A DNA stretch of 64,000 bases from a virus. A program made the position numbers and the translations under genes. Of the stretch, positions 6,895 through 26,436 are shown in pieces. The notes beneath the pieces were generated by a model. It saw only the letters and a program-made list of their open reading frames with translations, had not been told where the DNA came from and ran no database searches. Positions within the stretch are counted from its first letter, which is position 1; the number at the start of each line of letters is the position of its first letter. The stretch lies in UHGV virus genome UHGV-1440165, one strand, 5' to 3'.

Positions 6895-7143
6895 TTAGTT
6901 TTCCGCCATGACTTCATTCGTCATCGTTCCCCTGCACCTACAGTGTTCACAGACCACGGCAACGCAAGGCTTAAACTTCTGAACACTGGCGACGGGGACA
7001 TTCACCGCATTTGGAAAAACTGGAATCTCTCTGGCTTCAATCCGTTGCTCAGAGAGACGGTCTTCATCCAAGAAGGTGACTGTCTTGTGCGGACAACGCA
7101 TTGACGCTTCACCTTCCCAGGTGATTACTGTGTTTGAGGTCAT
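6895..7143 (-). CDS. Small Cys-rich protein (possible zinc ribbon)
   Basis: 82 aa, ATG start; CPH...C...CEHCRC cysteine pattern. Confidence 0.4.
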   Translation of the reverse strand: MTSNTVITWEGEASMRCPHKTVTFLDEDRLSEQRIEAREIPVFPNAVNVPVASVQKFKPCVAVVCEHCRCRGTMTNEVMAEN

Positions 7144-7427
7144 GATTCTACCTCCGATTTGGAGATGAATGATTCCATGTCTGACCGGGAAATAATCGTT
7201 TCTACACGATCTTCATCGATCAACATTTCGTTCAGAAGGTCATAGCCCAGCACTTGCACACCACGAACACCCCAAGACCTTTTCTTCAGCTCTGCCTCAA
7301 TACTCAGAACTCTCTGAACCGTTAGACCGCCGGAAGAGAATGGAACCGGATAGAAGGTGGAGCACATTTGCGCGCTGCCATTTAATCTATAGCGAACCAG
7401 CAGAACATCACACCATACACCAGCCAT
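7140..7427 (-). CDS. Hypothetical protein
   Basis: 95 aa ORF, ATG start; overlaps neighbours by 4 nt in operon style. Confidence 0.4.
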   Translation of the reverse strand: MAGVWCDVLLVRYRLNGSAQMCSTFYPVPFSSGGLTVQRVLSIEAELKKRSWGVRGVQVLGYDLLNEMLIDEDRVETIISRSDMESFISKSEVES

Positions 7428-7428
7428 G

Positions 7429-8091
7429 TTACACCTCCACCGCGTGGGACTTCAGGAGTTCGTCAATCGCTTTCTGTCCCATGTAGGAGAACGGGGTGCG
7501 CTGGTAGAACGCCCACAGTACCAGCTGAACAACGGCACGGGAACGGGTTTCAGCCGTCATCACCAGGTCACTGAAATGAGGAGACTCGGCTGTCCATTGG
7601 ATCACTTCGCCGAAGTCCTGATTGCAAGTCACAGAGATGCGGAACTTGTTGCACAGATCGTCGACTTCTTTGTAGGCATCGGTGGACACTCGGAGTTGTT
7701 CCGCATGCATCCAAGGGGTTGTGACGATCCTTTCACCCAATGTCTTGTCCGAAATGAACCATTCGACCGTTTTGTCAGATTTGGAGAATCCGTTGATGCG
7801 GTAGATACCGCCTTGTGACTCCATACTGCGCATGGCGTGATAGCGAGCATCGATTTCGTTGTTATGCATGGCATTGAAGTCAATGAACACGCGCCGCGCC
7901 AACACATCGTCCTCCGGCTGAAGAGCCAGGAAATCGTTCAGGCGGCTATAATGGAGGACATTGGAACCGTCGTGGCCATGTGTGCAATATGCGTAATAGC
8001 TGCCGATACGGGCGTGGGCAACATAAGACAACGGGGCGAAGAATAATCCGTCAGGATCAGGTCCGACGATGATAGAATAAAGTTTTTCCAT
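7429..8091 (-). CDS. Hypothetical protein
   Basis: First ATG at 8091 (MEKLYSII...); track start 8106 is a TTG codon. Upstream GC hairpin plus TTTCATTTGAGAGACTATATC leader. Confidence 0.5.
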   Translation of the reverse strand: MEKLYSIIVGPDPDGLFFAPLSYVAHARIGSYYAYCTHGHDGSNVLHYSRLNDFLALQPEDDVLARRVFIDFNAMHNNEIDARYHAMRSMESQGGIYRINGFSKSDKTVEWFISDKTLGERIVTTPWMHAEQLRVSTDAYKEVDDLCNKFRISVTCNQDFGEVIQWTAESPHFSDLVMTAETRSRAVVQLVLWAFYQRTPFSYMGQKAIDELLKSHAVEV

Positions 8092-13168: not shown

Positions 13169-15370
13169 TTAGATTTTGATCTCTTTCTCTGCCAGTTCGG
13201 CAGTGACCTTGTACTTCACGCCATCCACTTCAACTTCCATGGTTGACTCTTCCAGGTCGAGGTCGGTGAACCAGCCATGGCCAGCAACGATACCATACAC
13301 CACTTTAGACAGCGTCTTGTTCAGGGCGCGGACTTCAGTGATGGCCGCCTTGGCAGCAGCGTCGATCCAGTTTTCGATCAGCTGTTTCTGTACGGCTTCA
13401 GGCACAGCAGTAATAGCCGGGGACTTCACGAATGCGTCGTATTCTTTCAGTGCATTGGCGATGAACATATCACCCGCATTGAGAGCCTTTTTATCAGCAA
13501 TCTTCTTCTGTACCGCAGCGATGGACGGCAGAGAAGACGCCCCGGCGATCTTAACGTTCAGCTCACGGCTCATGTAGACGTCCGTGGAGTCCTTCAGCTC
13601 GGTCTTCGGTGAGAAGCCATAATCGCGGATACCAACACTAGACAGGTATTCTGCGGCCGCAGCGCCGTACTGAATAGCCAGACCTTTGGCATTACCCTTA
13701 CCAACCAGGGCGTCGCGATAGAACTTCAGTACCTTCTGCTTGCCTTTCAGGGCTTCCAGGCGAACGTTGTCGGCAAAGAACTGTGCAGCACTGATGTTCT
13801 TGACCATCGCACGGTTGACCAGCGGTACGCTTTCCAGGTTCAGAATGAACACTTCCGGACCAACGAACACGTGGACGCCCATTTCGATCAACTTCTGCAC
13901 AACTTCGATATCAGCCTTGAACGGCAGGGTCTTCACATTGATGATGCCGTCTTTGACGATGGTGTAGTTGCGCCACTGGAATGTGTCCAATTCTTCGGGT
14001 AGACCGAACTTCTTCTGAGCGAATTCGGGCACCGCCACAGTTCCATGCTGGATTGTACGCACACTGATGTTCGGGCGCTCAGAGTTATAGACCAGGTCGC
14101 TGATTGAGATCACGCCCAGATCGTTAGCAGGTTCAAACGACGGTGTCCACTCTTCGTGCTCAGCCAGCTTGAGAGCGAGGGCTTTACGCTCTTCTTTGGA
14201 CTTGGCGTTCGCGATTTCTTCCGCCAGCTTGTCTTCGGTATCATCGGCTTTCTGCACAGTACCGCGACCAATGCTCTTGTAGGAGAACATCGGGTGCTTG
14301 GTGGCAACAGACACGCCAGCTTCGGCCAGGTACGTCAGCACATCAACGACAGTGGTCGCATCTTCAGCCGGAACCATATTGTAGTCGATACCGTCCACGC
14401 CGCGCAGCTGATCATCAACGATGGCCTGGGTCAGATCAACTTTGATGTTGGAGTAGTCCTGCTTGGTGAAGCAGTTGCTGTACTGTTTGATGAAGCGGAC
14501 GTCGCCCGTTTTCTTCAGCGCAGCCCACACCAGGTCGGCGTCCATGATGTGTACGCCGTAGAACGCCAGCACGTATGCTGCCTGGATGTCCGTCAGCGCA
14601 TCAAGCTGGTCGATCATGTTAGGGTTGACGACCCACAGCTTCGTGACGCTCTCAGGGATGCTCACGTGGCCGATAGGATGGTCTTCATCCGGCTGTACCG
14701 CCAGCACGGTTGCTACGCCGTTTTCAACGTAGATGGCGTGAGTGTACACCACAGGAACGTCAACACGAACCTTCGGCACCGAGGACTTCAACACGTTTTC
14801 CAGCTCAGTCTGATATTCAGTCTGTCCTTCGGCGAACACGTGAGTCGCGCCGGAACGCTCGGACATCTGGGCCAGGAGTTCGCGGTTACAGTACCAGCCG
14901 TATTCGATAAAGGTGATGTTATCGAAAACAAATGGCAAGGTTTCGGCGACGGCCAGGATTTCATTGGAGCGCCAGCAGTTGTCATAACCATCGGTCATGA
15001 ACGCCAGGTTGTTGACGTAGCCGGGTTTCTTCAGGCTACGCGCAGTATCTACCGCGAGACCCAGGGGTTCGACGAAGCCAGTGCAACCGGATGGTTGCAG
15101 GAAGCGGTCGATCAGTTTGTTCAGCTCGCTCAGGTCAGACGCAGCACTGACCTGGCGGCCAGCGAACACAGTACCAAAGTCGCCACGGGATGAGAAGTAC
15201 AGGAGGCTCACTGTGTCTTCCGGTTTCACCAGGGAAGGCAGGTTCTCCTTCAGGTGCTTACGGACTTCAGGGAGCGCCCGGTACATGGAACCGGAAATGT
15301 CCACAACGATTACATGGTTGGACGGGGCAGCAGTCGCAACCGCATTCTTAAACTCCAGGGATTCAATCAT
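13169..15370 (-). CDS. von Willebrand factor A (vWA) domain protein
   Basis: MIDAS-type motif VVDISGSM near the N-terminus and later TDGYDN; about 733 aa from ATG at 15370 (MIESLEF...). Track start 15433 overlaps a small upstream ORF. Confidence 0.65.
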   Translation of the reverse strand: MIESLEFKNAVATAAPSNHVIVVDISGSMYRALPEVRKHLKENLPSLVKPEDTVSLLYFSSRGDFGTVFAGRQVSAASDLSELNKLIDRFLQPSGCTGFVEPLGLAVDTARSLKKPGYVNNLAFMTDGYDNCWRSNEILAVAETLPFVFDNITFIEYGWYCNRELLAQMSERSGATHVFAEGQTEYQTELENVLKSSVPKVRVDVPVVYTHAIYVENGVATVLAVQPDEDHPIGHVSIPESVTKLWVVNPNMIDQLDALTDIQAAYVLAFYGVHIMDADLVWAALKKTGDVRFIKQYSNCFTKQDYSNIKVDLTQAIVDDQLRGVDGIDYNMVPAEDATTVVDVLTYLAEAGVSVATKHPMFSYKSIGRGTVQKADDTEDKLAEEIANAKSKEERKALALKLAEHEEWTPSFEPANDLGVISISDLVYNSERPNISVRTIQHGTVAVPEFAQKKFGLPEELDTFQWRNYTIVKDGIINVKTLPFKADIEVVQKLIEMGVHVFVGPEVFILNLESVPLVNRAMVKNISAAQFFADNVRLEALKGKQKVLKFYRDALVGKGNAKGLAIQYGAAAAEYLSSVGIRDYGFSPKTELKDSTDVYMSRELNVKIAGASSLPSIAAVQKKIADKKALNAGDMFIANALKEYDAFVKSPAITAVPEAVQKQLIENWIDAAAKAAITEVRALNKTLSKVVYGIVAGHGWFTDLDLEESTMEVEVDGVKYKVTAELAEKEIKI

Positions 15371-15533
15371 CGTTATTGCCTTCTTCAGGGTTGTCATCGG
15401 CCTCACCTTCCGGATTGACCAGCATGTGTTCAACGAATTCGCGATTCAGCTCAATCTGGCTCATCAGCGCATCCGTCGGAGTAAAGCGGCGGTCGAGGTT
15501 ATCGACACCCGCACGTTTAAATGGTTTGGACAT
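15363..15533 (-). CDS. Small hypothetical ORF (56 aa) between NAMPT-like and vWA genes
   Basis: ATG at 15533 with GAGG RBS; its TGA stop overlaps the vWA start (ATGATTGA); acidic C-terminus. Not in ORF track (under 60 aa). Confidence 0.4.
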   Translation of the reverse strand: MSKPFKRAGVDNLDRRFTPTDALMSQIELNREFVEHMLVNPEGEADDNPEEGNNDD

Positions 15534-15574: not shown

Positions 15575-17239
15575 TTAGATTTGTGAGGCCAGTTCTGCCA
15601 CCAGAGGAGCAGCACGAACACGCGCATCTTCCAGAGTCTGAGTGTTGAAGAACTTGCCATCACGGTACACCAGTTGGTGTTGGTTGTCGGCGTCTTGCAC
15701 CTGATCAAAGGTGATGCCGTCAACCAACACTAGTTTACCCTGAGAGTCTTTAATGACTTTAAGGAAACCACGCGCAGACTTTTTAGTCCCGCCTTTGTCG
15801 GTCTTCGGCTCTTTGAAGATCTCGCGGAATTCACCGTTCACCTTACCAGCCGTCGCTTTCACTGCCGTTCCAGTACTGTCACGGGTGTTCATCTGGTAGG
15901 TGTAGGAACCAATACCGAAGACCACGTTAATGGAAGCGAAGTTCCGGCCAGCCAGACGACCAAAGATCTGGTCTTCACGTGCCAATGTGATAGAGTCACC
16001 GTAGATCAGACCGATGTGATCGTCCAACAGGAAGTGGCCAGTCTCAGTTTGAGTACCGCCAAAGATCTCCCACAGGCGCTGAATAGAGCCGACTGCTTCA
16101 GAACGGCTGATGATATTACTGTCGTCTGCCATCAGAGAGTTGATCGTACCTTCGCCTGTGATCAGGTGATAGGTGTTCGTCTCTTCGATGTGGATGACTT
16201 CGGTGCTGCTGGACACGCCGCTGATGTTCAGCATAGCGCGGTCTTTGAACCCCTCGATGCGGTAGCCGCCGACGATGTGAACTGGGTCGCCAGAGTCAGG
16301 GCGGATCACGACTTTGCCGTTGCGTGCCATGATAATGTCTTTCAGGCGAGGGAGATAGTCGTCGATGACCTGCCAATAGTCCCACGCATCCGACACAATG
16401 CTGACGATGCCATCAGGATACACGTCCTGCACCAGGCGACGGAAGGTTTCGAATTCTCCATTCTTCGTACCCATGCACATCACGGCGTGTTCGGTGGCTG
16501 CAACGGAGCCAGCAACGACATAGTCTTCATCGATATCCGCGCCGTAATACTCTTCAACGAAGTCCAGGGCAGGGTTGGTGTCAGTGCCTTTGAAGAACAC
16601 CAGATGGCCAGAACCGGAAGACGCCGCGTCATGCCATCCGCTCATACCACGGAAGGAGAAGTCGTGGCCTTGGTAATCGATGAACCAATGGTCCGGTGAC
16701 ACGCCTGTGGCGATAGCGGCTTTCACCATCAGTGCCTTGTAATGCAGGGCGATGGTGGCGTTCGTCATGGGCTTCCAGATCTCAGAGCTGAACACAGTCT
16801 CCAGATAGTTGGTCAGCCAGTAGAACTCCGGCAAGGTGTTGAACATCACATACACCGGAACGCCATACGGGCACATGGTGCCTTCGGGTAGAGCACGGAC
16901 TTCGATAGGCAGATAACCGAGGTCATGCAGGGCTTCGATATGCTCTGTGCCAACACGACCTGGACCCAGTACTTTGTTCATGCGACGGGCATACTTCTTC
17001 AACACCTTGGCCTTCGGGCGCTGGAAGAACGCTTCGTCAAACAGTTCGTGGAACCAGGTCATGAAACCCTGGATGCCCCAGACCACCACGCCGTTCTTCG
17101 GCAGGTGAGAGTTGAATAATTTGTTGGAACGCGGAGTCCCGTTGGAGAACACCAGCTCACTACCTTCAGGGAACTGATAGATGTGCCCTGATTTGTAGAA
17201 GTCGATTGCATGAATTGGGTCTAAGTGGCGCATGCTCAT
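15575..17239 (-). CDS. nadV: Nicotinamide phosphoribosyltransferase-family protein (NadV/NAMPT-like)
   Basis: 554 aa; NAMPT-type N-terminus with the DFYKSGH motif; ATG start overlaps the stop of the upstream Prs-like gene by 4 nt. Confidence 0.8.
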   Translation of the reverse strand: MSMRHLDPIHAIDFYKSGHIYQFPEGSELVFSNGTPRSNKLFNSHLPKNGVVVWGIQGFMTWFHELFDEAFFQRPKAKVLKKYARRMNKVLGPGRVGTEHIEALHDLGYLPIEVRALPEGTMCPYGVPVYVMFNTLPEFYWLTNYLETVFSSEIWKPMTNATIALHYKALMVKAAIATGVSPDHWFIDYQGHDFSFRGMSGWHDAASSGSGHLVFFKGTDTNPALDFVEEYYGADIDEDYVVAGSVAATEHAVMCMGTKNGEFETFRRLVQDVYPDGIVSIVSDAWDYWQVIDDYLPRLKDIIMARNGKVVIRPDSGDPVHIVGGYRIEGFKDRAMLNISGVSSSTEVIHIEETNTYHLITGEGTINSLMADDSNIISRSEAVGSIQRLWEIFGGTQTETGHFLLDDHIGLIYGDSITLAREDQIFGRLAGRNFASINVVFGIGSYTYQMNTRDSTGTAVKATAGKVNGEFREIFKEPKTDKGGTKKSARGFLKVIKDSQGKLVLVDGITFDQVQDADNQHQLVYRDGKFFNTQTLEDARVRAAPLVAELASQI

Positions 17240-18090
17240 TTTACACGTCCTGTATTTTCAGTTTTGAAAGGAAGACCGTCGGCGGTGATGTTCTCCCACC
17301 AGACAGTGTCGGCATACACAGCATCGTAGATCCCGTCGAAAACAGAGAGACCTTTGCTGAAGATGCCATGGGTAACGAAGAGCGTCATGTGCTTAGGCTT
17401 GTGCTTCTGAAGCTCTTTACCCAGCTCAACAAACGTGCGCCCACCGTCGCAGATATCATCAACCACAACCAGATAGCGGTCTTTGATCAGTTCAGGGTTT
17501 GTAATACTCACCCCAATGATTTCACCAGTCTTGGTGTCACGGTTCTTGTGTCCGTAGACAACAGGAACGCCATCCAATGACAGGCTGAGGGTTTCGGTCT
17601 TCTTCGCCGCGCCGCCGTCAGGGGCTACCAGCACAGCATTGTTCCCACGGATGAACCAGCCCAGATACTGGCGCACGATGTGATCTTGTGGGACCACATG
17701 GACGTTGTTGATCAGGGAAGACACAACATGGCTGTGAGGGTCTTTGATCGCCACGCGGTCAAAGTTCATGTTGTTGATGAACTCAGCCGCCCACTTCACG
17801 GACAGAGGCTCGCCGAAGTCGCAATGGCGGTCCTGGCGAGCATACGGGAAGTAAGGGATATACGCATGGAAGGTAGTCAGACGGTCCACGTTACCCAGGC
17901 CGCGCACGGCGTTTACCAGAAGCGCCAGCTCAATGAAGTCGGCTGATGATTTGATGTGAGCATCAATCACCACGTTCTGGACGTGACCGACAGGGATGCC
18001 AGCCTTTTGGATCTTGATATGTTCCTCACCACCTGGGAAGGTGAAGTGCTTGTAGAACACATCTTGGTCGTTCAATTTCAAACGAAACAT
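17236..18090 (-). CDS. Ribose-phosphate pyrophosphokinase-family protein (Prs-like)
   Basis: 284 aa; type I phosphoribosyltransferase/PRPP-binding motif VVVDDICDGGRT; ATG start with GAGG RBS. Confidence 0.75.
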   Translation of the reverse strand: MFRLKLNDQDVFYKHFTFPGGEEHIKIQKAGIPVGHVQNVVIDAHIKSSADFIELALLVNAVRGLGNVDRLTTFHAYIPYFPYARQDRHCDFGEPLSVKWAAEFINNMNFDRVAIKDPHSHVVSSLINNVHVVPQDHIVRQYLGWFIRGNNAVLVAPDGGAAKKTETLSLSLDGVPVVYGHKNRDTKTGEIIGVSITNPELIKDRYLVVVDDICDGGRTFVELGKELQKHKPKHMTLFVTHGIFSKGLSVFDGIYDAVYADTVWWENITADGLPFKTENTGRVK

Positions 18091-18200: not shown

Positions 18201-18995
18201 TTATTTGTAGGAATCGACGATGGCCTTGAACAGCGCGTCCTTCTGATCAGTTGGGATATAATTCGCCGGAGCCAGCAAGAGTCGCCTTATGTGTTCACAG
18301 CAGTCTTTCTGTTCTTCAGCGCTCATCTTATCCCAGGTGACAGCATTGAAGTAGATCCCGCCCTTGTAAGCCGCCATGCACGTCTTGGCCAGGCGAACAA
18401 CGAGTTCGGAATACAGCTCATCGGGATGCATGTATGAACGCAAATATGCTTCCACTCCAGCTTGGGCTGTGCTGTTGTGTAGATCGTTGTATCGTTCATT
18501 GTCGGTGCGAACCAAGCCAGCAACGAACCCTCGACTCGGATCTCGTGGATGTCGGAACACGAAAGACTGGCCGTGGCCTTGTAGGAATTCCGCCCCAGCC
18601 ATCTGATTTATCGTCCCTCTTTCGGAGACATACTGGAAGATGTCTATCTTCGCATCGGCGGTAGCCACCTCCAGCATCTGCTTCTCTACGACGGCGCGGT
18701 AGGCTTCCAGTTCCCACAGCTGGGAAAAGGTCTTGTCATAGGCCAGCTTCTTACCCAACTCTTCATCAAAGTTGGCGGGGTCGATAGAGGTGGAGCTATT
18801 CTTACCCCAAACGACAAAGCCGTTGTCCATCTTGAAGTGGCAGGTTATAACGCGATGGCCGCCGACTTCACGGTCTTCATAGATGACTTCGGCAATGTGG
18901 GACTTCAGAAGATCTGGGGACAGCCTCAGACCTTCTCGAACAGATTTACCCTTCAGTTCCACACCTTTGGGTTCATTACGATTGATGGTTGCCAT
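18201..18995 (-). CDS. Hypothetical protein
   Basis: 264 aa ORF, ATG start; no recognisable motif. Confidence 0.5.
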   Translation of the reverse strand: MATINRNEPKGVELKGKSVREGLRLSPDLLKSHIAEVIYEDREVGGHRVITCHFKMDNGFVVWGKNSSTSIDPANFDEELGKKLAYDKTFSQLWELEAYRAVVEKQMLEVATADAKIDIFQYVSERGTINQMAGAEFLQGHGQSFVFRHPRDPSRGFVAGLVRTDNERYNDLHNSTAQAGVEAYLRSYMHPDELYSELVVRLAKTCMAAYKGGIYFNAVTWDKMSAEEQKDCCEHIRRLLLAPANYIPTDQKDALFKAIVDSYK

Positions 18996-19001
18996 AATAG
19001 T

Positions 19002-19026
19002 TTCCTCAGATAAAAGAAACCCCGCA
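19002..19026 (-). terminator. Intrinsic terminator
   Basis: CCCCGC-ACAAG-GCGGGG hairpin followed on the minus strand by TTTCTTTTA; downstream of the 19060..19431 gene. Confidence 0.6.
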
Positions 19027-19059
19027 CAAGGCGGGGTTACTCAGGCCGGAGCCGACAGA

Positions 19060-19431
19060 TTATTTCAGCAGCGCTTCCAGTTCTTCAACAGATTTGCCTT
19101 CCAACTCCTGCTGTTTCTTACGCTGGATCAGCTCCAGGATAACCTGGTTGTTCGCCTTACGCTCTGCCGCGTCTTTGCTGTCATCACGCTCTTTCAGCTT
19201 GACGCCGATGATGTGCTTGACAACGTCGAAGCGCAGCTGCAGTTCGGAGTCAACGTTGCTTTTGGTGCCGATGAAATCTTCTTCATCGGTTTCCGCTGCC
19301 TTCACCTGACGGCTCAGGCTTTTCGCCATTTCGTTCAGGGCAGTCAGGCTCAGGTCCCAAACCTGCTCAACAGACAGCAGACCTTTGTTAGACTCGAAGC
19401 GCAGTTTCAGACGGGTTACTTTATCAAACAT
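19060..19431 (-). CDS. Hypothetical charged/coiled-coil protein
   Basis: 123 aa, ATG start, E/K-rich C-terminal half. Confidence 0.45.
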   Translation of the reverse strand: MFDKVTRLKLRFESNKGLLSVEQVWDLSLTALNEMAKSLSRQVKAAETDEEDFIGTKSNVDSELQLRFDVVKHIIGVKLKERDDSKDAAERKANNQVILELIQRKKQQELEGKSVEELEALLK

Positions 19432-19477
19432 TTTACTATCCTCAATGATGAATGGGTTACAGTTTCAAATCAGGGTT

Positions 19478-21496
19478 TTAGAACACAACTTTCACAGTAC
19501 GGTTGAACGAGCCGCTCACCTTCACGAACACGTGGTTGCGTTGGGTGGTAGAGAAGCCCAGTCCGGACAGCTGCTCAGTGCTTGGCTGTACCTTAATCTT
19601 ACTACCTAACATTTCAAAAACCTTACGGTGTTTATCCAGTTCCGGCTTCAGATATTCGTTGTAGAAGCCACGGGTGCCGACCGGGTTGGCACAACCTTCC
19701 AGGATGAAGAACACGTGCTTGTTGCCCGTCTGCTCGCCGTCCCAATGGTTTGGTGAGTTCAGAACCAGTTGCACCTTCTGGAAGACTGAGGTCTTGATAC
19801 CCCAGATTTCCTGGGAGCGAGCGTCGTCTTTCAGGGTCGAACTGATGCCTGTCAATTGTCCAGCGCGGACGTGGAGCACAACAGCCAGGGTGCGGTCTTT
19901 ATGCTTCAGACCGGGATGTGAGAAGCGCTTGGTCTGCCCTTTGTATTCGACTTCAATTTCAAAGCCCATATCGCAGGTTTCACGCTGGCTGAAGTTGGTG
20001 ACATAGAACTCATAGTCGCCATCGCGCAGCTTGCGCTCATCGCTGAAGAAGATGTTCTCGACCGGGCGACGATTTGGATCAATACCGTCCATGCCGTTCA
20101 TGTCGATGTCCAGGGTTGCGCCAGTTGCTGAACGACGGTTGTGGTAATACACATGGTTGTGCAGCGGATCGTTCATGCTCAGGTCCAGGTCATCGTTGTT
20201 GTGCCAAGCCAGGGACACCCGGAGGAAGCTGTCAACGTTGCCACCAGCGGTCTTCACGCGCTCTTTGATGGAGTCAGCCACTTCACCGTTGTATGACCAG
20301 CTGAAGCCGTTGTTCCACTTGAACAGGTTAGGAGCGCCAGCGGTAGCCGGAGCAATCAGAGACATCAGGTTGCCAGTGTGGGAGTTCTCAACCAGCACTT
20401 CCAGGGAATGCGCCTTTGGCAGCACGTTCGTCAGGAAGTCATCGATAGTGATCTCTTCAACCTTATCCAGGGACTTGGTTGGAGTCTTCACTTCAGACGC
20501 CAGCTGAGCAAACGGGTCCATCTTCTTCTGAGCCGCCAGGTCGGCGAACAGAACGTTGTTGATGGTCAGATCGTCATACACGGCATAACGGCGACCCAGT
20601 GAATCGGTCAGACCCAGCGCTTCAACTTCTTTCTGCGCGTTTTCGATCATCGACTTGGTCACCAGCGCAGTTGGGCGCTTGTAGTTCGTCGGAGCTACTT
20701 TGGCTTCGAAAGACTTGACGGCGGTTTCCAGGTCGCGGCCTTCGTTGAGGTCTACCAACAGAGAGCCAATCACGGTATTACGAATGCCGTGAGGGGTATG
20801 ACCGTTCGCACGATAGCCAGTGCGCCAAGCCCACAGAGCGCGTTTCTCTTCTGCAGTCTGTTCGTACAGGGTCTTGTTCACCACGAACGCCTGCACTGCC
20901 GCCTTGTGCTCTTCACCGCGATACAGAGAATTCTGATCAATCAGTTCCAGGACGATTTCGGCCGATTCCAGAGACAGCTCACGCAGACCGCGCTCAAACA
21001 CTTCGATCGCCTGGCGGATTTCACCCTTCTTAGAAGCGATGCCATCAGCGCGCAGAACATAGCTGCCCAGCAGATCGGCATGGAAGTGGTTATAAGTGCG
21101 CACGTTGCCGTCTTTCATTTCGTGATTCGACTCAACGCCGACTTTCTTGGTGTCGTTGAAGTATACGTCGACGATTGCGTGCTGTTTAACATACGCCGAC
21201 AGCGCCGCCGCAACAACATCGTATTCGTTACCCAGCTGAATGCCGTCCCAGATAGTAATCATTTCGTAATCAGGGGTGATGGTGACCACGCCGCCGATGT
21301 TACGGATGAATTGTTTGCAGCAGGTGCAGTCGTGCTCGGTGCGCTCACGGTAAAGCGGGTTAGTGCCCGCAGGGAAAGAAGACAGATACAGATCCCACAG
21401 AGCATCTTTATCGGTGTTGGTCATGAACAGACCAGTTGCTGACATGGCCAGCACGTTGTTGTTTACGGCTACTGCGAAGGGCTTGAATTGTGACAT
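19478..21496 (-). CDS. Large hypothetical protein (672 aa)
   Basis: ATG start; long ORF with protein-like composition; contains HDCTCC and MKDGNVR segments but no confidently recognisable domain. Confidence 0.55.
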   Translation of the reverse strand: MSQFKPFAVAVNNNVLAMSATGLFMTNTDKDALWDLYLSSFPAGTNPLYRERTEHDCTCCKQFIRNIGGVVTITPDYEMITIWDGIQLGNEYDVVAAALSAYVKQHAIVDVYFNDTKKVGVESNHEMKDGNVRTYNHFHADLLGSYVLRADGIASKKGEIRQAIEVFERGLRELSLESAEIVLELIDQNSLYRGEEHKAAVQAFVVNKTLYEQTAEEKRALWAWRTGYRANGHTPHGIRNTVIGSLLVDLNEGRDLETAVKSFEAKVAPTNYKRPTALVTKSMIENAQKEVEALGLTDSLGRRYAVYDDLTINNVLFADLAAQKKMDPFAQLASEVKTPTKSLDKVEEITIDDFLTNVLPKAHSLEVLVENSHTGNLMSLIAPATAGAPNLFKWNNGFSWSYNGEVADSIKERVKTAGGNVDSFLRVSLAWHNNDDLDLSMNDPLHNHVYYHNRRSATGATLDIDMNGMDGIDPNRRPVENIFFSDERKLRDGDYEFYVTNFSQRETCDMGFEIEVEYKGQTKRFSHPGLKHKDRTLAVVLHVRAGQLTGISSTLKDDARSQEIWGIKTSVFQKVQLVLNSPNHWDGEQTGNKHVFFILEGCANPVGTRGFYNEYLKPELDKHRKVFEMLGSKIKVQPSTEQLSGLGFSTTQRNHVFVKVSGSFNRTVKVVF

Positions 21497-21611
21497 GATG
21501 TAGTCTTCCTGTTTCAGTTCAAATGTGCGCCCCGTTTGCCAGGGCGCTTCGTTTAAGTGAGGTCAATAATACGTTGAAAAGAGTTATTGAAGAATGAAGT
21601 AAAGGGAATCT

Positions 21612-22865
21612 TTATTCAGGTTTCTTCAAACGATCAAGGAGATTGACAGAGCTGCGACCGAGCACAACTTCATCACAGCGCTTCTTGTAAGCACCACTTC
21701 CGTCATAACCGACCTTACCCCGAGGCTTATCTCCCCGTTGAACGGCTTCTACGCAGCGGGTGTACTTGCTCAGTTCACAGAACATGTTCTCCAGCTGCAT
21801 GACGTTCATACACTGATCTTCCGGGGCTTCAGCCGACCAGAACTGCTCCCGGACATAACCATAGTCCCCGTAAATCGAATCCTGGTGGTCACGCAGCCAG
21901 AAGATACATTCTTCATGCGTCATGCCGTCCTTGTTCAGGAACAACAGGTCGATCCCAGCGCGGCAACCCGGTCCAGCGATAGTGAAATGGTTCTCACTGA
22001 ACGGATACTCAGGAATGTACGTGAAGTCCACCCAGATCTGATAGGCCAGGAATGGACCCAAGCCTTCGATTTCGTCGTACATGGCCTGGTAGACTTCATC
22101 CGGAGATTCGCATTCCAGCAGCCGCTCGAAGTAATCAGGGTGCTTGTTGACGAATGCCCTCAGAGAACGGATGACGCGCATCGGCATGTACGGTTCCCAA
22201 CCCTCAATGGTGTAGAAGTCCGGCTCTGCTTCAGCAATTGCCTTCGCTTCTTTATAATCCATATTCTGGGTTGAACCGTCTTTGCAGATCAGATTCACCA
22301 TCATCCCACCGAAGCGCTGCTCCTTGTGGTTGACAACCAGCTCAGGGAAAGCCAGGCATTGCTTCAGGCCGCCCGTGTTGAAAGCATTGGTGAAGACTTT
22401 GCCGCCGTTGGCCTCGAACTTCTGTAAACGTTCGCGGGTCGCGTCAAGGTTGATCTTGGCGAAGTCGGAGATCGTCATCGCGCCGCCGATAGCCTGGATC
22501 GGATCCCAGAGGTTAAACATGCGGAACAACACGCAGTTGAACATCTTATCCGGCATAGACAGCGCATCGTTGTTAACGATGTTGTTGATTAGGTTGAGAG
22601 ACTGCCTGTCGTGCTCTCTCCGGACGTTGCAGAACTTGACCTGCCGTAGTATGGCATTATCCGTCCAAGGAGCAGGAAGACGCTGGACGTCCTTCTTAAC
22701 GTGGATCTTGTATCGCTCGCTCATCCATTCGTAAGAAAGACGACGATGAAACGGACTGAGCACGGGCTTGGCGGACTTGATTTTATCTTCGCGGACACCA
22801 CAATAAGGGATGTCACGGGCTTTATCTTTCATGGTATCCTCACAGAATACGAAAACAGAGGCCAT
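21612..22865 (-). CDS. Hypothetical protein (417 aa)
   Basis: ATG at 22865 (alternative ATG at 22832 with GAGGA RBS); no recognisable motif. Confidence 0.5.
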   Translation of the reverse strand: MASVFVFCEDTMKDKARDIPYCGVREDKIKSAKPVLSPFHRRLSYEWMSERYKIHVKKDVQRLPAPWTDNAILRQVKFCNVRREHDRQSLNLINNIVNNDALSMPDKMFNCVLFRMFNLWDPIQAIGGAMTISDFAKINLDATRERLQKFEANGGKVFTNAFNTGGLKQCLAFPELVVNHKEQRFGGMMVNLICKDGSTQNMDYKEAKAIAEAEPDFYTIEGWEPYMPMRVIRSLRAFVNKHPDYFERLLECESPDEVYQAMYDEIEGLGPFLAYQIWVDFTYIPEYPFSENHFTIAGPGCRAGIDLLFLNKDGMTHEECIFWLRDHQDSIYGDYGYVREQFWSAEAPEDQCMNVMQLENMFCELSKYTRCVEAVQRGDKPRGKVGYDGSGAYKKRCDEVVLGRSSVNLLDRLKKPE

Positions 22866-22901
22866 TATAAGCCTCTGCTGTTTAGTGAATAACTGGTTGT
22901 C

Positions 22902-23774
22902 TTAATCGATACGGGTCAGCTGGGTGATCGATGGAGTGATCGGAGTAGCGACGAACACGCGGACGTTAGCTTTCCATTTACCCCAGATCAGTGGCACGTC
23001 TGGCATGTTCTCTTTGTCAAACACAAACACCGGAACATAGCTTTCCATCGCTGTATCAGCATGCGCCTGGAAGCCAGGTTCCATGTACTGCATGATAGAA
23101 CGGACGAAGTCGAATGGGGCGAACCCGACACCAGCTTGTTCGTTGAAGCCGATCTGACCAGAATCGGCAGTGGCGGTCAGGATGATCTCAGTGATCTGAT
23201 GCTTAGGGGTAGCCGTCAGCATATCGGAGAAGTCAGGCTCTTTGAAGGTGGCCATGTTCTTCAGGAACTTCCCAGCCGGGTACTCTTTACCGTCGACGGT
23301 GATGGTGTCAACCACCTTGATGCAAGCCTGAGGGAATTCGCCTTCGATGCGCAGACTTTCACGTGGGAAGCCTTTATCGTAATAGTAGTCCAGCGCTGGC
23401 ACAACTTCATCCATGCTGCGGACGAACTTGCTCATGTTAGAGGCATACACGCGCTGTAAGCATTCATCGCCGTCGAAACCAGCAATGTGCGCCACGCCGT
23501 CGTTGACAGTTGTGATGTCGCCCTGGGCATCCATGATCTGGCGCATGATGTCTTTGGTGTCTACGATGGCAGGGGCGTCGCTCGGCTTAGGATTGACCGT
23601 CAGAGTCAAAGTCACATCGTGGTCAAAGAACGCCGCTTCCAGCAGTTCACGAGTTTCTTCCAGCACCAGTTTGGCCTGGTTGCGGATCTTTGCGAAGTTG
23701 GGCGACGTCACATCGCCCTTTGCATTACCGAAAGCCAGATTCAGTTTCACGTTCTTGTCAAATGTAGTTGTCAT
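22902..23774 (-). CDS. Hypothetical protein
   Basis: ATG at 23774 (MTTTFDKNV...) with GGAG RBS; track start 23861 is an upstream extension. Confidence 0.5.
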   Translation of the reverse strand: MTTTFDKNVKLNLAFGNAKGDVTSPNFAKIRNQAKLVLEETRELLEAAFFDHDVTLTLTVNPKPSDAPAIVDTKDIMRQIMDAQGDITTVNDGVAHIAGFDGDECLQRVYASNMSKFVRSMDEVVPALDYYYDKGFPRESLRIEGEFPQACIKVVDTITVDGKEYPAGKFLKNMATFKEPDFSDMLTATPKHQITEIILTATADSGQIGFNEQAGVGFAPFDFVRSIMQYMEPGFQAHADTAMESYVPVFVFDKENMPDVPLIWGKWKANVRVFVATPITPSITQLTRID

Positions 23775-23790
23775 AATATAGCGACTCCAG

Positions 23791-24255
23791 TTATTCGCTT
23801 TTGGCCTTCGTAGGCCGGATGATGTATTTTGGAACCAGCTTCCATTCAGGAACCTGATCATGTTTGACCACTTTGATGCGAGACATATCGGCGGCCTCAG
23901 TGATCTGCTCAGGGTTCAGAACCTTCAACATGTTCCACTGCTCCAGCAGCTTGATGATGCGGTTCATTCGCAGGATGTCCTCACGGTTGAAGCCGTTGTA
24001 GTGGCCATCCAGCATGAACAGATGCTTGAAGTGAACGATATAATACTTGCCATACTTATGAAGAATATGACAAGTCTGGTACAGAGTATTCGGCTCTTGG
24101 CGCGTGTTTACCCCAATTCGGCTCAGTGTTTCCTTGATCCCCAGGAAGATCCCTGGCCGATCTTGGTTCAATTGAACTTCAACCATACAATCAACGATGC
24201 TGGCCTCATCGTTGACGGCTGAAATGTTCAATATGTCTAGCGTATTGCGCGCCAT
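23791..24255 (-). CDS. regA: RegA-like translational repressor
   Basis: 154 aa; KETLSRIGV...LYQTCHILHKYGKYYIVHFK and EWKLVPKY match T4 RegA; sits next to the clamp-loader genes as in T4. Confidence 0.7.
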   Translation of the reverse strand: MARNTLDILNISAVNDEASIVDCMVEVQLNQDRPGIFLGIKETLSRIGVNTRQEPNTLYQTCHILHKYGKYYIVHFKHLFMLDGHYNGFNREDILRMNRIIKLLEQWNMLKVLNPEQITEAADMSRIKVVKHDQVPEWKLVPKYIIRPTKAKSE

Positions 24256-24284: not shown

Positions 24285-24707
24285 CTACTTAGCCTTGCGC
24301 GGTTTCGCTTTGGCGTTCAACTCAGTACGTCCCATCTTCTCGCGTATCTCGGCCAGGACTTCCTGCGGCAAGAAACGGACGTACTCGGATGCCTTCTCCA
24401 TACTGATGTAGAAGTATTCGGACAGCATCTTCACATCAGGGTCTACAGCGCCCTTCTTAGACCATTTGTCATAACGTTTACGCGCCGGAATGGAATGAAA
24501 GGCGTATGACCATTGCATCCATGGAGTGATAGCATGCAGCTTATTCATCTGCTGTGCAAACACCAGAGTATCTTTGCTCTGGGCGAGACCACGCCGCGTC
24601 ATGAACGGGTCGAACCCCTTCTGCACTTCCGGATCATCGGTTTGCAGAAGGTTCTCTTTGCTGCTGTTCAGGGCAGACAGATAATCGAACAATCCAGGTG
24701 CGGCCAT
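24285..24707 (-). CDS. Clamp loader small subunit (gp62-like)
   Basis: 140 aa immediately downstream of the gp44-like gene; IPARKRYDKWSKK resembles T4 gp62 VPRGKRYGKWAKL. Confidence 0.55.
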   Translation of the reverse strand: MAAPGLFDYLSALNSSKENLLQTDDPEVQKGFDPFMTRRGLAQSKDTLVFAQQMNKLHAITPWMQWSYAFHSIPARKRYDKWSKKGAVDPDVKMLSEYFYISMEKASEYVRFLPQEVLAEIREKMGRTELNAKAKPRKAK

Positions 24708-24711
24708 AGTA

Positions 24712-25701
24712 TCACTTCCACTTGATGTTGAGCATGATGTTGGTCAGGAAGTACACGGCATGCAGCCATACGTCCCCAACCTGACGGTGCTCAATTTGAG
24801 ACTGACCGCAGACACAGACAAGGTCAGGGATAGACTCAGTCTGTACAGACATCGGCTTCTCTTTGTCCTGTGGTACACAGAACTGGAAGAAGCGGGAATA
24901 GAAGTCTTCGGTGATGTAGTTCTGATTGTCAGTCACCCACTGCTTCATGCCAGCCCAGTCATTGGCTTTCAGCATGCCGACCAGAGTGCCGAGGTCAGCC
25001 GCTTTCAACACAGCCAGGGCGCGTTCGTCAATCTTACCGAACGTGGTGACGTTGTCCTGCAGCGTACCCATGATGCGGCGGTTGTCGGGGAAATGGCGCT
25101 TAACGATAGCAGCCAGAACCTGTGGAACGAATTCAACGTTTTCGGCTCTGAGGATTTCAACGCAGCGCAGACAGAATTTACCCTGAACTTCCAGCGCTTC
25201 CTGCTCGTTCCAGATGAAGTCGATCTCACGGCAACGCGAGCGCAGAGGTTCGTTGACACGCTGCTTGGCGTTCGTGGTCAGGATAAAGGAGCAGTTCTTT
25301 GAGACCTTCTCTACGATACCCTTCAGGGATTCCTGCGCCGACATAGACAGGCGCTCAACTTCGTCGAGGATAACGACTTTGCGGCCGCCGAAGACGCTCA
25401 CGCCCGTAGAATACTGAATGACGCGATCACGGATAACATCGATGCTGTTGTCCAGGGATGCGTTGATAAACAGAGGTTGCTTACAACCGATCTCATTACA
25501 CACGGCCAGAGCAGTAGTGGTCTTGCCCGTACCCGGCTGAGGGGAGTAGAACAGCATGGACGGGATGTTGCCGCTGCCGCTGGTAATGTACCCATGGATT
25601 TTAGCGCGGACGTCCTGAGGGATGATGATCTCATCGAGGTTGTCAGGTCTGTACTTGTTCTCCCACGCATATTGGTCGGACACGATAGTGATATTGGACA
25701 T
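24712..25701 (-). CDS. Clamp loader large subunit (gp44-like, RFC-type AAA+ ATPase)
   Basis: Walker A PQPGTGKTT, Walker B VVILDEVE, SRC motif (RSRC); ATG overlaps the upstream stop (TAATG). Confidence 0.85.
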   Translation of the reverse strand: MSNITIVSDQYAWENKYRPDNLDEIIIPQDVRAKIHGYITSGSGNIPSMLFYSPQPGTGKTTTALAVCNEIGCKQPLFINASLDNSIDVIRDRVIQYSTGVSVFGGRKVVILDEVERLSMSAQESLKGIVEKVSKNCSFILTTNAKQRVNEPLRSRCREIDFIWNEQEALEVQGKFCLRCVEILRAENVEFVPQVLAAIVKRHFPDNRRIMGTLQDNVTTFGKIDERALAVLKAADLGTLVGMLKANDWAGMKQWVTDNQNYITEDFYSRFFQFCVPQDKEKPMSVQTESIPDLVCVCGQSQIEHRQVGDVWLHAVYFLTNIMLNIKWK

Positions 25702-26357
25702 TATGAATTCCCATGATATAGTTTACAGAATAGAACCCAAGCACTGTCATTATATGGGTTCCAACCTTCTTTGAATTTGTTTATCATACTCATTGCAGTG
25801 TTCTCTTTTATTGAGAACAAACGAGCAATTTTACGACAACCATCTCCGGTTTTCAACCAATGTAAGTAAACATCGCCCGATTTCAACCACATTGGTCTAG
25901 TGTTATGCAACAACGCAGCCCCTGTGTCCCAAGGGTTTATACCGAACACCGGATGAGAAGAACCTTTCCTACCGTTCATCGGATGTTCTTTCCCTTTCTT
26001 TCCTTTTAGCCAACCAGGCTTTCCCCTTCTGTGATGGTTTGGTCCTGCTGCTCTTCCGTTAGCCACAGAACACCCTTCCGGTTGAAACATCAAGTTTAAA
26101 CAGAGAGGATTTTGTGAATGTTCTGAAATGAGTTTCTGTTCTTTCCAATATGCATCTTCTGGAGAGTCGAACAATTCTACAAATATCACATCAAAGAAAT
26201 CAGAACCTTTCTTAGATATGATTTCCTTGACCGTTTGTGAAGAAGTGAAATACGAAGTGAACAATTGTAAAGGATGCGCACCCAATTTCGTTCTAGAACC
26301 AAAATAGAAAGAACCATCCTTTCCTAACAAATGATATACAAACGGTTGGTTCCTCAT
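25701..26357 (-). CDS. Putative GIY-YIG-type homing endonuclease (freestanding)
   Basis: VYHLLGKDGSFYFGS (GIY...YIG-like), downstream conserved E and N, basic C-terminal region; ATG at 26357 with AGAGG RBS; inserted between gp45 and gp44. Confidence 0.45.
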   Translation of the reverse strand: MRNQPFVYHLLGKDGSFYFGSRTKLGAHPLQLFTSYFTSSQTVKEIISKKGSDFFDVIFVELFDSPEDAYWKEQKLISEHSQNPLCLNLMFQPEGCSVANGRAAGPNHHRRGKPGWLKGKKGKEHPMNGRKGSSHPVFGINPWDTGAALLHNTRPMWLKSGDVYLHWLKTGDGCRKIARLFSIKENTAMSMINKFKEGWNPYNDSAWVLFCKLYHGNS

Positions 26358-26388
26358 TTCAGCCTCTTGTAGAAGAATCATTTCAAAT

Positions 26389-26407
26389 GGGCGGGAAAGC
26401 CCCGCCC
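26389..26407 (-). other. GC-rich hairpin (GGGCGGG-AAAG-CCCGCCC) of the recurring element
   Basis: Perfect 7-bp stem followed on the minus strand by ATTTGAAATG; a TATAAT hexamer lies just upstream. Confidence 0.45.
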
Positions 26408-26436
26408 ACACATTATAGCATCAGGCTGGAGATTGA

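Follow-up and report, generated by a model that had tools for sequence, protein, structure and literature searches.

Genes following regA in an Ackermannviridae phage genome: a probable mosaic of thymidine-hypermodification, TerD-like and NARP1-associated units

We analysed the genes that follow regA in a stretch of 64,000 nucleotides from UHGV virus genome UHGV-1440165 (the whole stretch is called the window below). Five co-directional open reading frames (ORFs) on the minus strand fill positions 18201-23774, 3' of regA in the direction of transcription (Table 1). All five are real genes, since each of them matches a PHROG family, with E-values from 1e-47 to 0, and the block is conserved in more than 100 phage records at 80-94% DNA identity. 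Matches to the 5.7-kb interval occur in 283 phage records, and its identity is 93.8% with Salmonella phage pSal-SNUABM-02 and approximately 88-90% with Yersinia phage CAU_YEP3, SKML-39, P46FS4, Ag3 and MK-13. These phages all belong to the Ackermannviridae, mostly to Agtrevirus, and sequence similarity places the window in an Agtrevirus-like, ViI-like phage of this family. The original prediction had described five uncharacterised genes standing where synteny with T4 would place the DNA polymerase gene, and had suggested that they might encode DNA-modification or anti-defence enzymes. Most of the block is in fact already annotated in relatives, and the word "uncharacterised" cannot be kept for two of the five genes, which can be recognised and have names in the records of related phages.

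Table 1. Features of the block and of the adjoining regA region. Positions are those of the window; aa, amino acids.
Feature	Positions	Strand	Remarks
MazG-like all-alpha NTP pyrophosphohydrolase (predicted), 290 aa	22902..23774	-	ORF extends to 23861
aGPT-Pplase clade 1 / HMUDK_hel protein, 406 aa from M12	21612..22832	-	maximal ORF 417 aa, 21612-22865
672-aa protein	19478..21496	-	phrog_1735; precomputed Pfam PF26675
123-aa partner of the 672-aa protein	19060..19431	-	phrog_2018
264-aa protein with N4 gp49/Sf6 gp66 domain (18693-18917)	18201..18995	-	PF13876; phrog_4435, 1e-114
Terminator-like hairpin and T-run	22854..22879	-	between the MazG-like and aGPT-Pplase1 genes; consensus scan
Terminator-like GC-rich hairpin and T-run	19018..19038	-	between the 672/123 cassette and the 264-aa gene; 8-bp stem, 6 GC pairs
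regA translational repressor	23791..24255	-	PF01818, 3e-33; phrog_242, 1e-52; last of the T4-like 45-44-62-regA run
gp62-like clamp-loader gene	24285-24707	-	upstream of regA
gp44-like clamp-loader gene	24712-25701	-	upstream of regA

The T4-like gene order 45-44-62-regA is genuine here and ends at regA, where T4 continues with gene 43. The observation that none of the five following genes encodes a polymerase was correct. No Pfam polymerase domain was found in any of the five proteins, and a tblastn search of the whole window with the DNA polymerase of phage ViI (Vi01; Kuttervirus, Ackermannviridae) gave no match at 1e-3. However, the absence of the polymerase gene from the T4 position is the norm of the family and not a displacement special to this phage. 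In ViI about 55 kb separate the polymerase gene (orf00236) from this place, and its neighbours encode the kinase gp243 and the transferase gp247; the polymerase gene of Aeromonas phage phiA8-29 is likewise grouped with kinase and transferase genes. Thus the location of the polymerase elsewhere is a trait of the Ackermannviridae, true of every relative examined.

The gene order of the window is the same as that following regA in ViI, orf00161-orf00160-orf00158-orf00155-...-orf00152. The MazG-like protein is 61% identical to orf00161, the 417-aa ORF product is 82% identical to orf00160 (gp160) over 407 aa, and the identities of the 672-aa and 264-aa proteins to their ViI homologs are approximately 80% and 66%. 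Unlike the window, ViI has extra small genes (dnaJ-like, orf00153) between the homologs of the 123-aa and 264-aa genes. The gp numbers of ViI were linked to its orf numbers via the accessions of gp226, gp243 and gp247.

The block is probably a mosaic, situated in the replication-gene region of the Ackermannviridae and made up of three units with separate functions. Firstly, the MazG-like gene and the gene of aGPT-Pplase clade 1 would belong to the thymidine-hypermodification system of the family. Secondly, the 672-aa and 123-aa genes would form a cassette, for which the best guess is a role in host takeover or counter-defence and not in DNA modification. Finally, the 264-aa protein would be a variant, devoid of the RyR domain, of a phage family combining the gp49/66 and RyR domains, and its gene would stand immediately upstream of a NARP1 module. 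Thus the suggestion of DNA-modification or anti-defence genes survives in part: the 417-aa protein is orthologous to ViI gp160, the 290-aa protein appears to be of the MazG type, and one more gene of the block, encoding the 264-aa protein, may be related to anti-defence.

The 417-aa ORF product matches Pfam family PF18723 (HMUDK_hel, formerly aGPT-Pplase clade 1) with a score of 278 bits (cut-off 25; E 1e-82), over profile positions 6-280 of 281. Its position is identical to that of gp160 in ViI, in the series regA, MazG-like gene, gp160 gene, 672-aa gene, and gp160 was listed as aG/PT-PPlase1 by Lee et al. 2018 (PMC5889632). A 100%-identical copy of the product is present on an 85-kb ENA contig. 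The 417 aa given in the original prediction correspond to the maximal ORF. Orthologs are 396-414 aa long, mostly 398-407, and begin at M12; a GAGGA ribosome-binding site precedes M12 (22832); the first 11 codons coincide with the hairpin at 22854..22879, and residues 1-11 have a predicted local distance difference test score (pLDDT) below 50. The true start is therefore most likely M12, which yields 406 aa. The 290-aa protein, whose ORF extends to 23861, starts at MTTTF (23774), as do all its orthologs.

The clade-1 protein has a helix-hairpin-helix (HhH) DNA-glycosylase-like fold, with the HhH-like motif GLGPFLAYQIWVD at 22026-22064. The motif E359-N-x-F-C363-E364 (numbering of the 417-aa ORF), encoded at 21774-21791, is invariant in the family, and E359, C363, E364 and K367 (E-x3-C-E-x2-K) are invariant across clade 1, including the distant PaMx11 gp50 (25% identity). 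The motifs GPFLAYQIWVD and E-N-x-F-C-E are similar in form and spacing to motifs of PUGT (PaMx11 gp46, PDB 8z2m), a member of clade 2 (ADDT) together with ViI gp247 and M6 gp51. In PUGT, Glu243, Thr244 and Cys247 are metal-binding or catalytic, and Trp146 and Lys150 bind glycine (PMC11472151); all these residues are invariant in the clade-2 alignment. The spacing of E359-x3-C363 equals that of E243-x3-C247, and the glycine-binding Trp146 and Lys150 match by position the invariant Phe272 and Gln276 of the clade-1 protein, the comparison being one of spacing and not a residue-level structural alignment. However, the two clades are separate Pfam families (PF18723 and PF18724), and no sequence homology between them is detectable: the 417-aa protein has no PF18724 match, its BLASTP comparison with ViI gp247 gives E 1.5, and the hhalign probability is 0.3%. 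At the level of sequence, membership in clade 2 is thus not supported, and since these comparisons show no homology, the correspondence of the clade-1 Glu/Cys motif with the clade-2 active site is one that we infer. The clade-1 protein is not required for the clade-2 transfer reaction.

Clade 1 is tied to the hypermodification pathway by gene order and by co-occurrence. In phiA8-29 (locus L009, 2410-9349) the DNA polymerase gene is followed by two small genes, the HMUD2 kinase gene, ADDT and HMUDK_hel, and in PaMx11 kinase gp49 is followed by HMUDK_hel gp50 and then by a thymidylate-synthase homolog. The numbers of clade-1 and clade-2 records per genus in the phage collection are nearly equal (Salmonella 164/164, Vibrio 62/62, Klebsiella 45/45, Shigella 6/6). 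The layout of phiA8-29, a distant member of the Ackermannviridae, is the opposite of that in the window: its clade-1 gene is part of the same contiguous run as the polymerase gene and stands four genes downstream of it.

In the pathway described by Lee et al. (2018, 2021), the phage clears deoxythymidine triphosphate (dTTP) from the pool, makes the triphosphate of 5-hydroxymethyldeoxyuridine (5-hmdUTP) and replicates with 5-hmdU. After replication the base is phosphorylated by 5-hmdU DNA kinases. The clade-2 transferase (ADDT) then adds serine, a pyridoxal phosphate (PLP) enzyme decarboxylates the product to 5-NeOmdU, and the remaining 5-hmdU is converted to thymine. Gp160 is among the five ViI proteins whose mixed lysates turn 5-hmdU DNA into 5-NeOmdU (PMC5889632). 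In Lee et al. 2021 the pathway is explained by the kinase, the clade-2 transferase gp247 and the PLP enzyme gp226, with no role for gp160 or M6 gp55. Our literature search found no activity assigned to clade 1 and nothing after Lee 2021. The connection of clade 1 with thymidine hypermodification dates from 2013-2018, and what is described here is its catalytic-looking invariant Glu/Cys motif.

In the 290-aa protein the first ~190 aa (23205-23774), which include the motifs LVLEETRELLEA and MDAQGDITTVNDGVAH, make up the catalytic domain; the remaining ~100 aa at the C terminus are full-length in only three representatives of clusters below 50% identity. The protein matches phrog_2144 ("MazG-like pyrophosphatase", 2e-125) and phrog_671 ("nucleotide pyrophosphohydrolase", 5e-21). 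When 1.84 billion representative proteins were searched with a profile, 301 relatives sharing residues 1-190 were found, and among 40 of these the Pfam assignments were PRA-PH (15/40), MazG (7/40) and MazG-like (5/40). The profile of the relatives matches DR2231 of Deinococcus radiodurans, a MazG-like nucleoside triphosphate (NTP) pyrophosphatase of known structure in the PDB, at 5e-7 across the acidic-motif helices. E39, E40, E43, E46, D82 and D86 (EExxE ... DxxxD) are invariant in the orthologs, and the equivalent E, E, D and D columns are invariant among the 40 distant relatives. The likeness to DR2231 and to the MazG/HisE (PRA-PH) superfamily, over the EExxE...D..D helices, is thus seen via the relatives; the match is transitive only, the window protein itself being below detection, and its additional C-terminal region of ~100 aa is a further difference from DR2231. 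This transitive profile link together with the invariant acidic motifs assigns the protein, at the level of sequence, to the MazG/HisE-type all-alpha NTP pyrophosphohydrolases. Phages using 5-hmdU need a dTTPase (PMC8989533), and a dTTPase/dUTPase is part of the pathway in PMC13458397; the role of the 290-aa protein is therefore most likely the clearing of dTTP and deoxyuridine triphosphate (dUTP).

In the system that we consider probable, the 290-aa enzyme would hydrolyse dTTP and/or dUTP as a pre-replicative step. The 406-aa clade-1 protein would be a base-flipping DNA enzyme of HhH fold acting on 5-(phospho)hydroxymethyldeoxyuridine, with Glu359-x3-Cys363-Glu364 used like the Glu-Thr-x2-Cys of the clade-2 transferase. 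It might either aid the kinase or catalyse a second fate of 5-phosphomethyldeoxyuridine (5-PmdU). The close relatives CAU_YEP3, SKML-39 and P46FS4 have a homolog of gp247, and SW16-7 is annotated with a kinase, ADDT and deoxyuridine monophosphate (dUMP) hydroxymethylase; by analogy with these relatives, the other pathway genes would be present in the window phage. The prediction is that its DNA contains hypermodified thymidine of the ViI type, which would have consequences for sequencing, for restriction mapping and for its resistance to host defences that rely on nucleases.

Several observations weigh against this reading. The purified clade-2 enzyme, kinase and PLP enzyme make the hypermodified base without gp160, and since these three suffice, gp160 may be dispensable or regulatory. 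The kinases, ADDT, the PLP enzyme and dUMP hydroxymethylase were not found within the window. The 290-aa protein has no direct match in Pfam (even at E<=10) or NCBIfam, nor in the PDB, where both the sequence and the ortholog profile were used, so that any substrate named for it is conjectural. Finally, both hairpins of the block come from the consensus scan, which gave 12 terminator-like hairpins versus 5.7 +/- 2.3 expected.

One possibility, to which we give somewhat less than an even chance, is that the clade-1 protein is not an enzyme but a DNA-binding, base-flipping helper of the 5-hmdU DNA kinase, which presents 5-hmdU or sets the contexts that are phosphorylated. The Pfam name HMUDK_hel implies a kinase helper domain, and the clade-1 domain is fused to a kinase in SP10 gp186 (Table 3 in PMC5889632), although the SP10 kinase domain is active alone. 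In PaMx11 the clade-1 gene immediately follows the kinase gene, and in phiA8-29 it is the second gene after that of the HMUD2 kinase, ADDT being the first. A helper would also fit the fact that the kinases alone phosphorylate only ~23% of 5-hmdU in vitro, as well as the formation of the hypermodified base without the clade-1 protein. However, E-x3-C-E-x2-K is invariant as far as PaMx11 gp50, as one would expect if it were a catalytic site, and the motif parallels the essential Glu and Cys of clade 2.

Another role, which we consider improbable, is that of an enzyme converting to canonical thymine the share of 5-PmdU in DNA that is not hypermodified. The virion DNA of ViI, M6, PhiW-14 and SP10, all of which carry a clade-1 gene, is free of 5-hmdU, which is converted either to the hypermodified base or to thymine, and the thymine-branch enzyme is not named in the pathway literature surveyed, the coverage of which is incomplete. 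For these two reasons a Cys-dependent clade-1 enzyme is a low-confidence candidate for this branch. The route, as we infer it, might proceed as in clade 2 through an adduct of Cys with C6 and an exocyclic-methylene intermediate, to be resolved by a hydride donor and not by an amino acid. Indeed, M6 gp51 with borohydride gives thymidine from 5-PmdU, so this chemistry is feasible on the fold, and the Glu/Cys motif is conserved in clade 1. On the other hand, no cofactor-binding motif was identified in the clade-1 protein, and with the hhalign value cited above the homology of its motif to the clade-2 active site is unproven.

The second unit is formed by the 672-aa and 123-aa genes. The 672-aa protein contains a TerD-like beta-sandwich at residues ~420-560 (19817-20239) with the invariant pattern DDLDL...LDxDMN...EN, and its N-terminal part has an invariant R-E-x-D-C-x-x-C motif and an HFH patch. 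The fold of the former region is that of the TerD beta-sandwich, and this domain probably binds Ca2+. TerD itself is a tellurite-resistance or stress protein (PDB 2kxt, 2qz7), whereas in the window the TerD-like part is one domain of a larger multi-domain protein, for the other domains of which no relative has been solved; neither a Pfam TerD match (at E<=10) nor a Ter operon context is present. The TerD-like domain is the only recognisable domain of the pair, and no nucleic-acid enzyme fold was detected. A Foldseek comparison of the 672-aa model with the PDB gave noise only, with no match at E<=1e-3, and a literature search for phage TerD-like proteins found nothing relevant.

Direct sequence searches of the PDB with the 672-, 417- and 290-aa proteins and their ortholog profiles gave no match, and scans of all five block proteins with NCBIfam and PADLOC gave no match.

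Homologs of the 672-aa protein number more than 5300. The protein is approximately 45-52% identical across Ackermannviridae, Mydo/PBES02-type, phiCbK-like, phiRSL1, Bastille-like Bacillus and N4-like phages and a cyanophage, an unusually high conservation between phage families that otherwise share little. The pair is also present in Schitoviridae, Herelleviridae and jumbo phages. In Zuri, RSL1 and JBP901 a homolog of the 123-aa gene is located directly downstream of the 672-aa homolog (35-40% identity, E 1e-17 to 1e-23); in JBP901 it is unannotated and occupies positions 7093-7449 of the locus (L007). Among 80 diverse viral loci from IMG/VR (17 from Ackermannviridae and 63 from other viruses), the small partner is found on the same strand in 78, the median distance between the two genes being 29 bp; the other two loci are truncated just after the large gene. 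In three loci the small gene is upstream of the large one, not downstream. In the 63 loci from outside the Ackermannviridae no aGPT-Pplase1 or MazG-like gene was found within ~6 kb, and outside the 17 Ackermannviridae loci the pair has no further conserved neighbour. An AAA+ ATPase or a vWA/DUF2201 protein was considered as a third partner and rejected: AAA genes flank the pair in Zuri and JBP901, but such neighbours occur in 1-2 of the 80 loci. Since the pair is kept in 78 of the 80 loci and has no other conserved neighbour outside the Ackermannviridae, it is a two-gene cassette that stands by itself, probably spread by horizontal transfer, and does not depend on thymidine hypermodification.

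These data bear directly on the view of the block as one unit, taken in the original prediction. On such a view the five genes would be an operon for DNA modification or anti-restriction that had taken the place of the polymerase gene at this position, which we regard as very improbable. It is true that the genes are co-directional, closely spaced and conserved together across the Ackermannviridae, and that two of the five are linked to modification. However, the 672/123 pair recurs without the other three genes in the 63 loci, sharing no conserved neighbour; the units are set apart by terminator-like hairpins; relatives have insertions of homing endonucleases and small genes at the borders of the units; and the clade-1 gene of phiA8-29 is grouped with the kinase, transferase and polymerase genes instead.

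As to its function, the pair may represent an undescribed, horizontally mobile cassette built around a TerD-like domain, with a role in takeover or counter-defence. It is rather doubtful that it is instead a replication or virion accessory. The pair does stand among replication genes in the window, and conservation at ~45-50% identity across unrelated phage families is seen more typically in core machinery than in anti-defence genes, which evolve fast. An accessory of this kind is, however, difficult to reconcile with the absence of the cassette from most phages, its patchy distribution across families and its varying contexts, or with a protein whose sole recognisable domain is TerD-like and which shows no fold of a nucleic-acid enzyme. 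The conservation of the cassette across unrelated families isolates a problem that can be tested by knock-outs and with purified proteins.

In the ViI record (NC_015296, 13301-15320 of locus L004, Vi01_128c/129c), unlike the window, the 672-aa gene is split into two coding sequences (183 aa and 491 aa) that share the note orf00158. Either the isolate has a frameshift here or the sequence contains an error.

The third unit is the gene of the 264-aa protein, which contains the domain PF13876 at residues 27-101, with a score of 46.4 bits (cut-off 27) and an E-value of 5.6e-12. In other Ackermannviridae, orthologs in the same position that are 290 aa long have in addition the RyR domain PF02026 (2e-10, 41 bits against a cut-off of 27.4). 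This domain has no match at E<=1 in the window protein, and ViI orf00152 likewise lacks the RyR core. Alignment reveals a clean 41-aa deletion of the core in the window copy, and the C-terminal helical region corresponds to that of the RyR-domain orthologs. The family has at least three C-terminal variants, of 241-251, 264-275 and 290 aa (IMG/VR loci L012-L015, L022 and L025), with Pfam RyR in the 290-aa variant only.

Phage proteins with RyR domains have recently been reported to cleave or sequester the cyclic ADP-ribose (cADPR) signals of Thoeris and to neighbour NARP1. RyDEP and other phage RyR proteins (PF02026) are found in NARP1 operons, and in phage DyoEdafos RyDEP neighbours NARP1; the 264-aa gene is likewise directly upstream of the Adps and Namat candidates. 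Indeed, it is followed by a gene for a PRPS-like protein and a gene matching Namat, both on the minus strand in the region 15575-18090. The 554-aa product matches the phage Namat structures 9W5X/9W5W at 1e-134, versus ~1e-49 for eukaryotic NAMPT, and the 284-aa PRPS-like product is a candidate Adps. This nicotinamide adenine dinucleotide (NAD) module thus looks like NARP1 (Adps+Namat). However, the window copy, unlike RyDEP, lacks the 41-aa RyR core; membership in RyDEP was rejected for this reason and was kept only as a lead. If the 264-aa gene is to be grouped anywhere, it is with the neighbouring NAD+/Thoeris-related region.

The NARP1-like module is not general in the family. ViI differs from the window in having none. 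In the sampled orthologs of 290 aa bearing RyR, a vWA gene follows directly, with no NARP1 between. In 13 other Ackermannviridae loci a vWA gene is within ~2.5 kb downstream of the 672-aa gene, which leaves no room for NARP1. In most Ackermannviridae the vWA gene directly follows the 264-aa homolog, and the annotation of relatives shows a gene for an acyl carrier protein next after the vWA gene. In the window a vWA-domain protein of 754 aa (PF00092, 3e-5) is encoded at 13169-15433 on the minus strand, three genes beyond the block.

The junctions around the block genes are insertion hot spots. In relatives the 417-aa and 672-aa genes are separated by homing endonucleases, and additional small genes stand between those of the 123-aa and 264-aa proteins. 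Upstream of the block, an ORF on the minus strand at 25701-26411 separates the gp44-like and gp45-like clamp genes, and CAU_YEP3 has an annotated homing endonuclease at this place.

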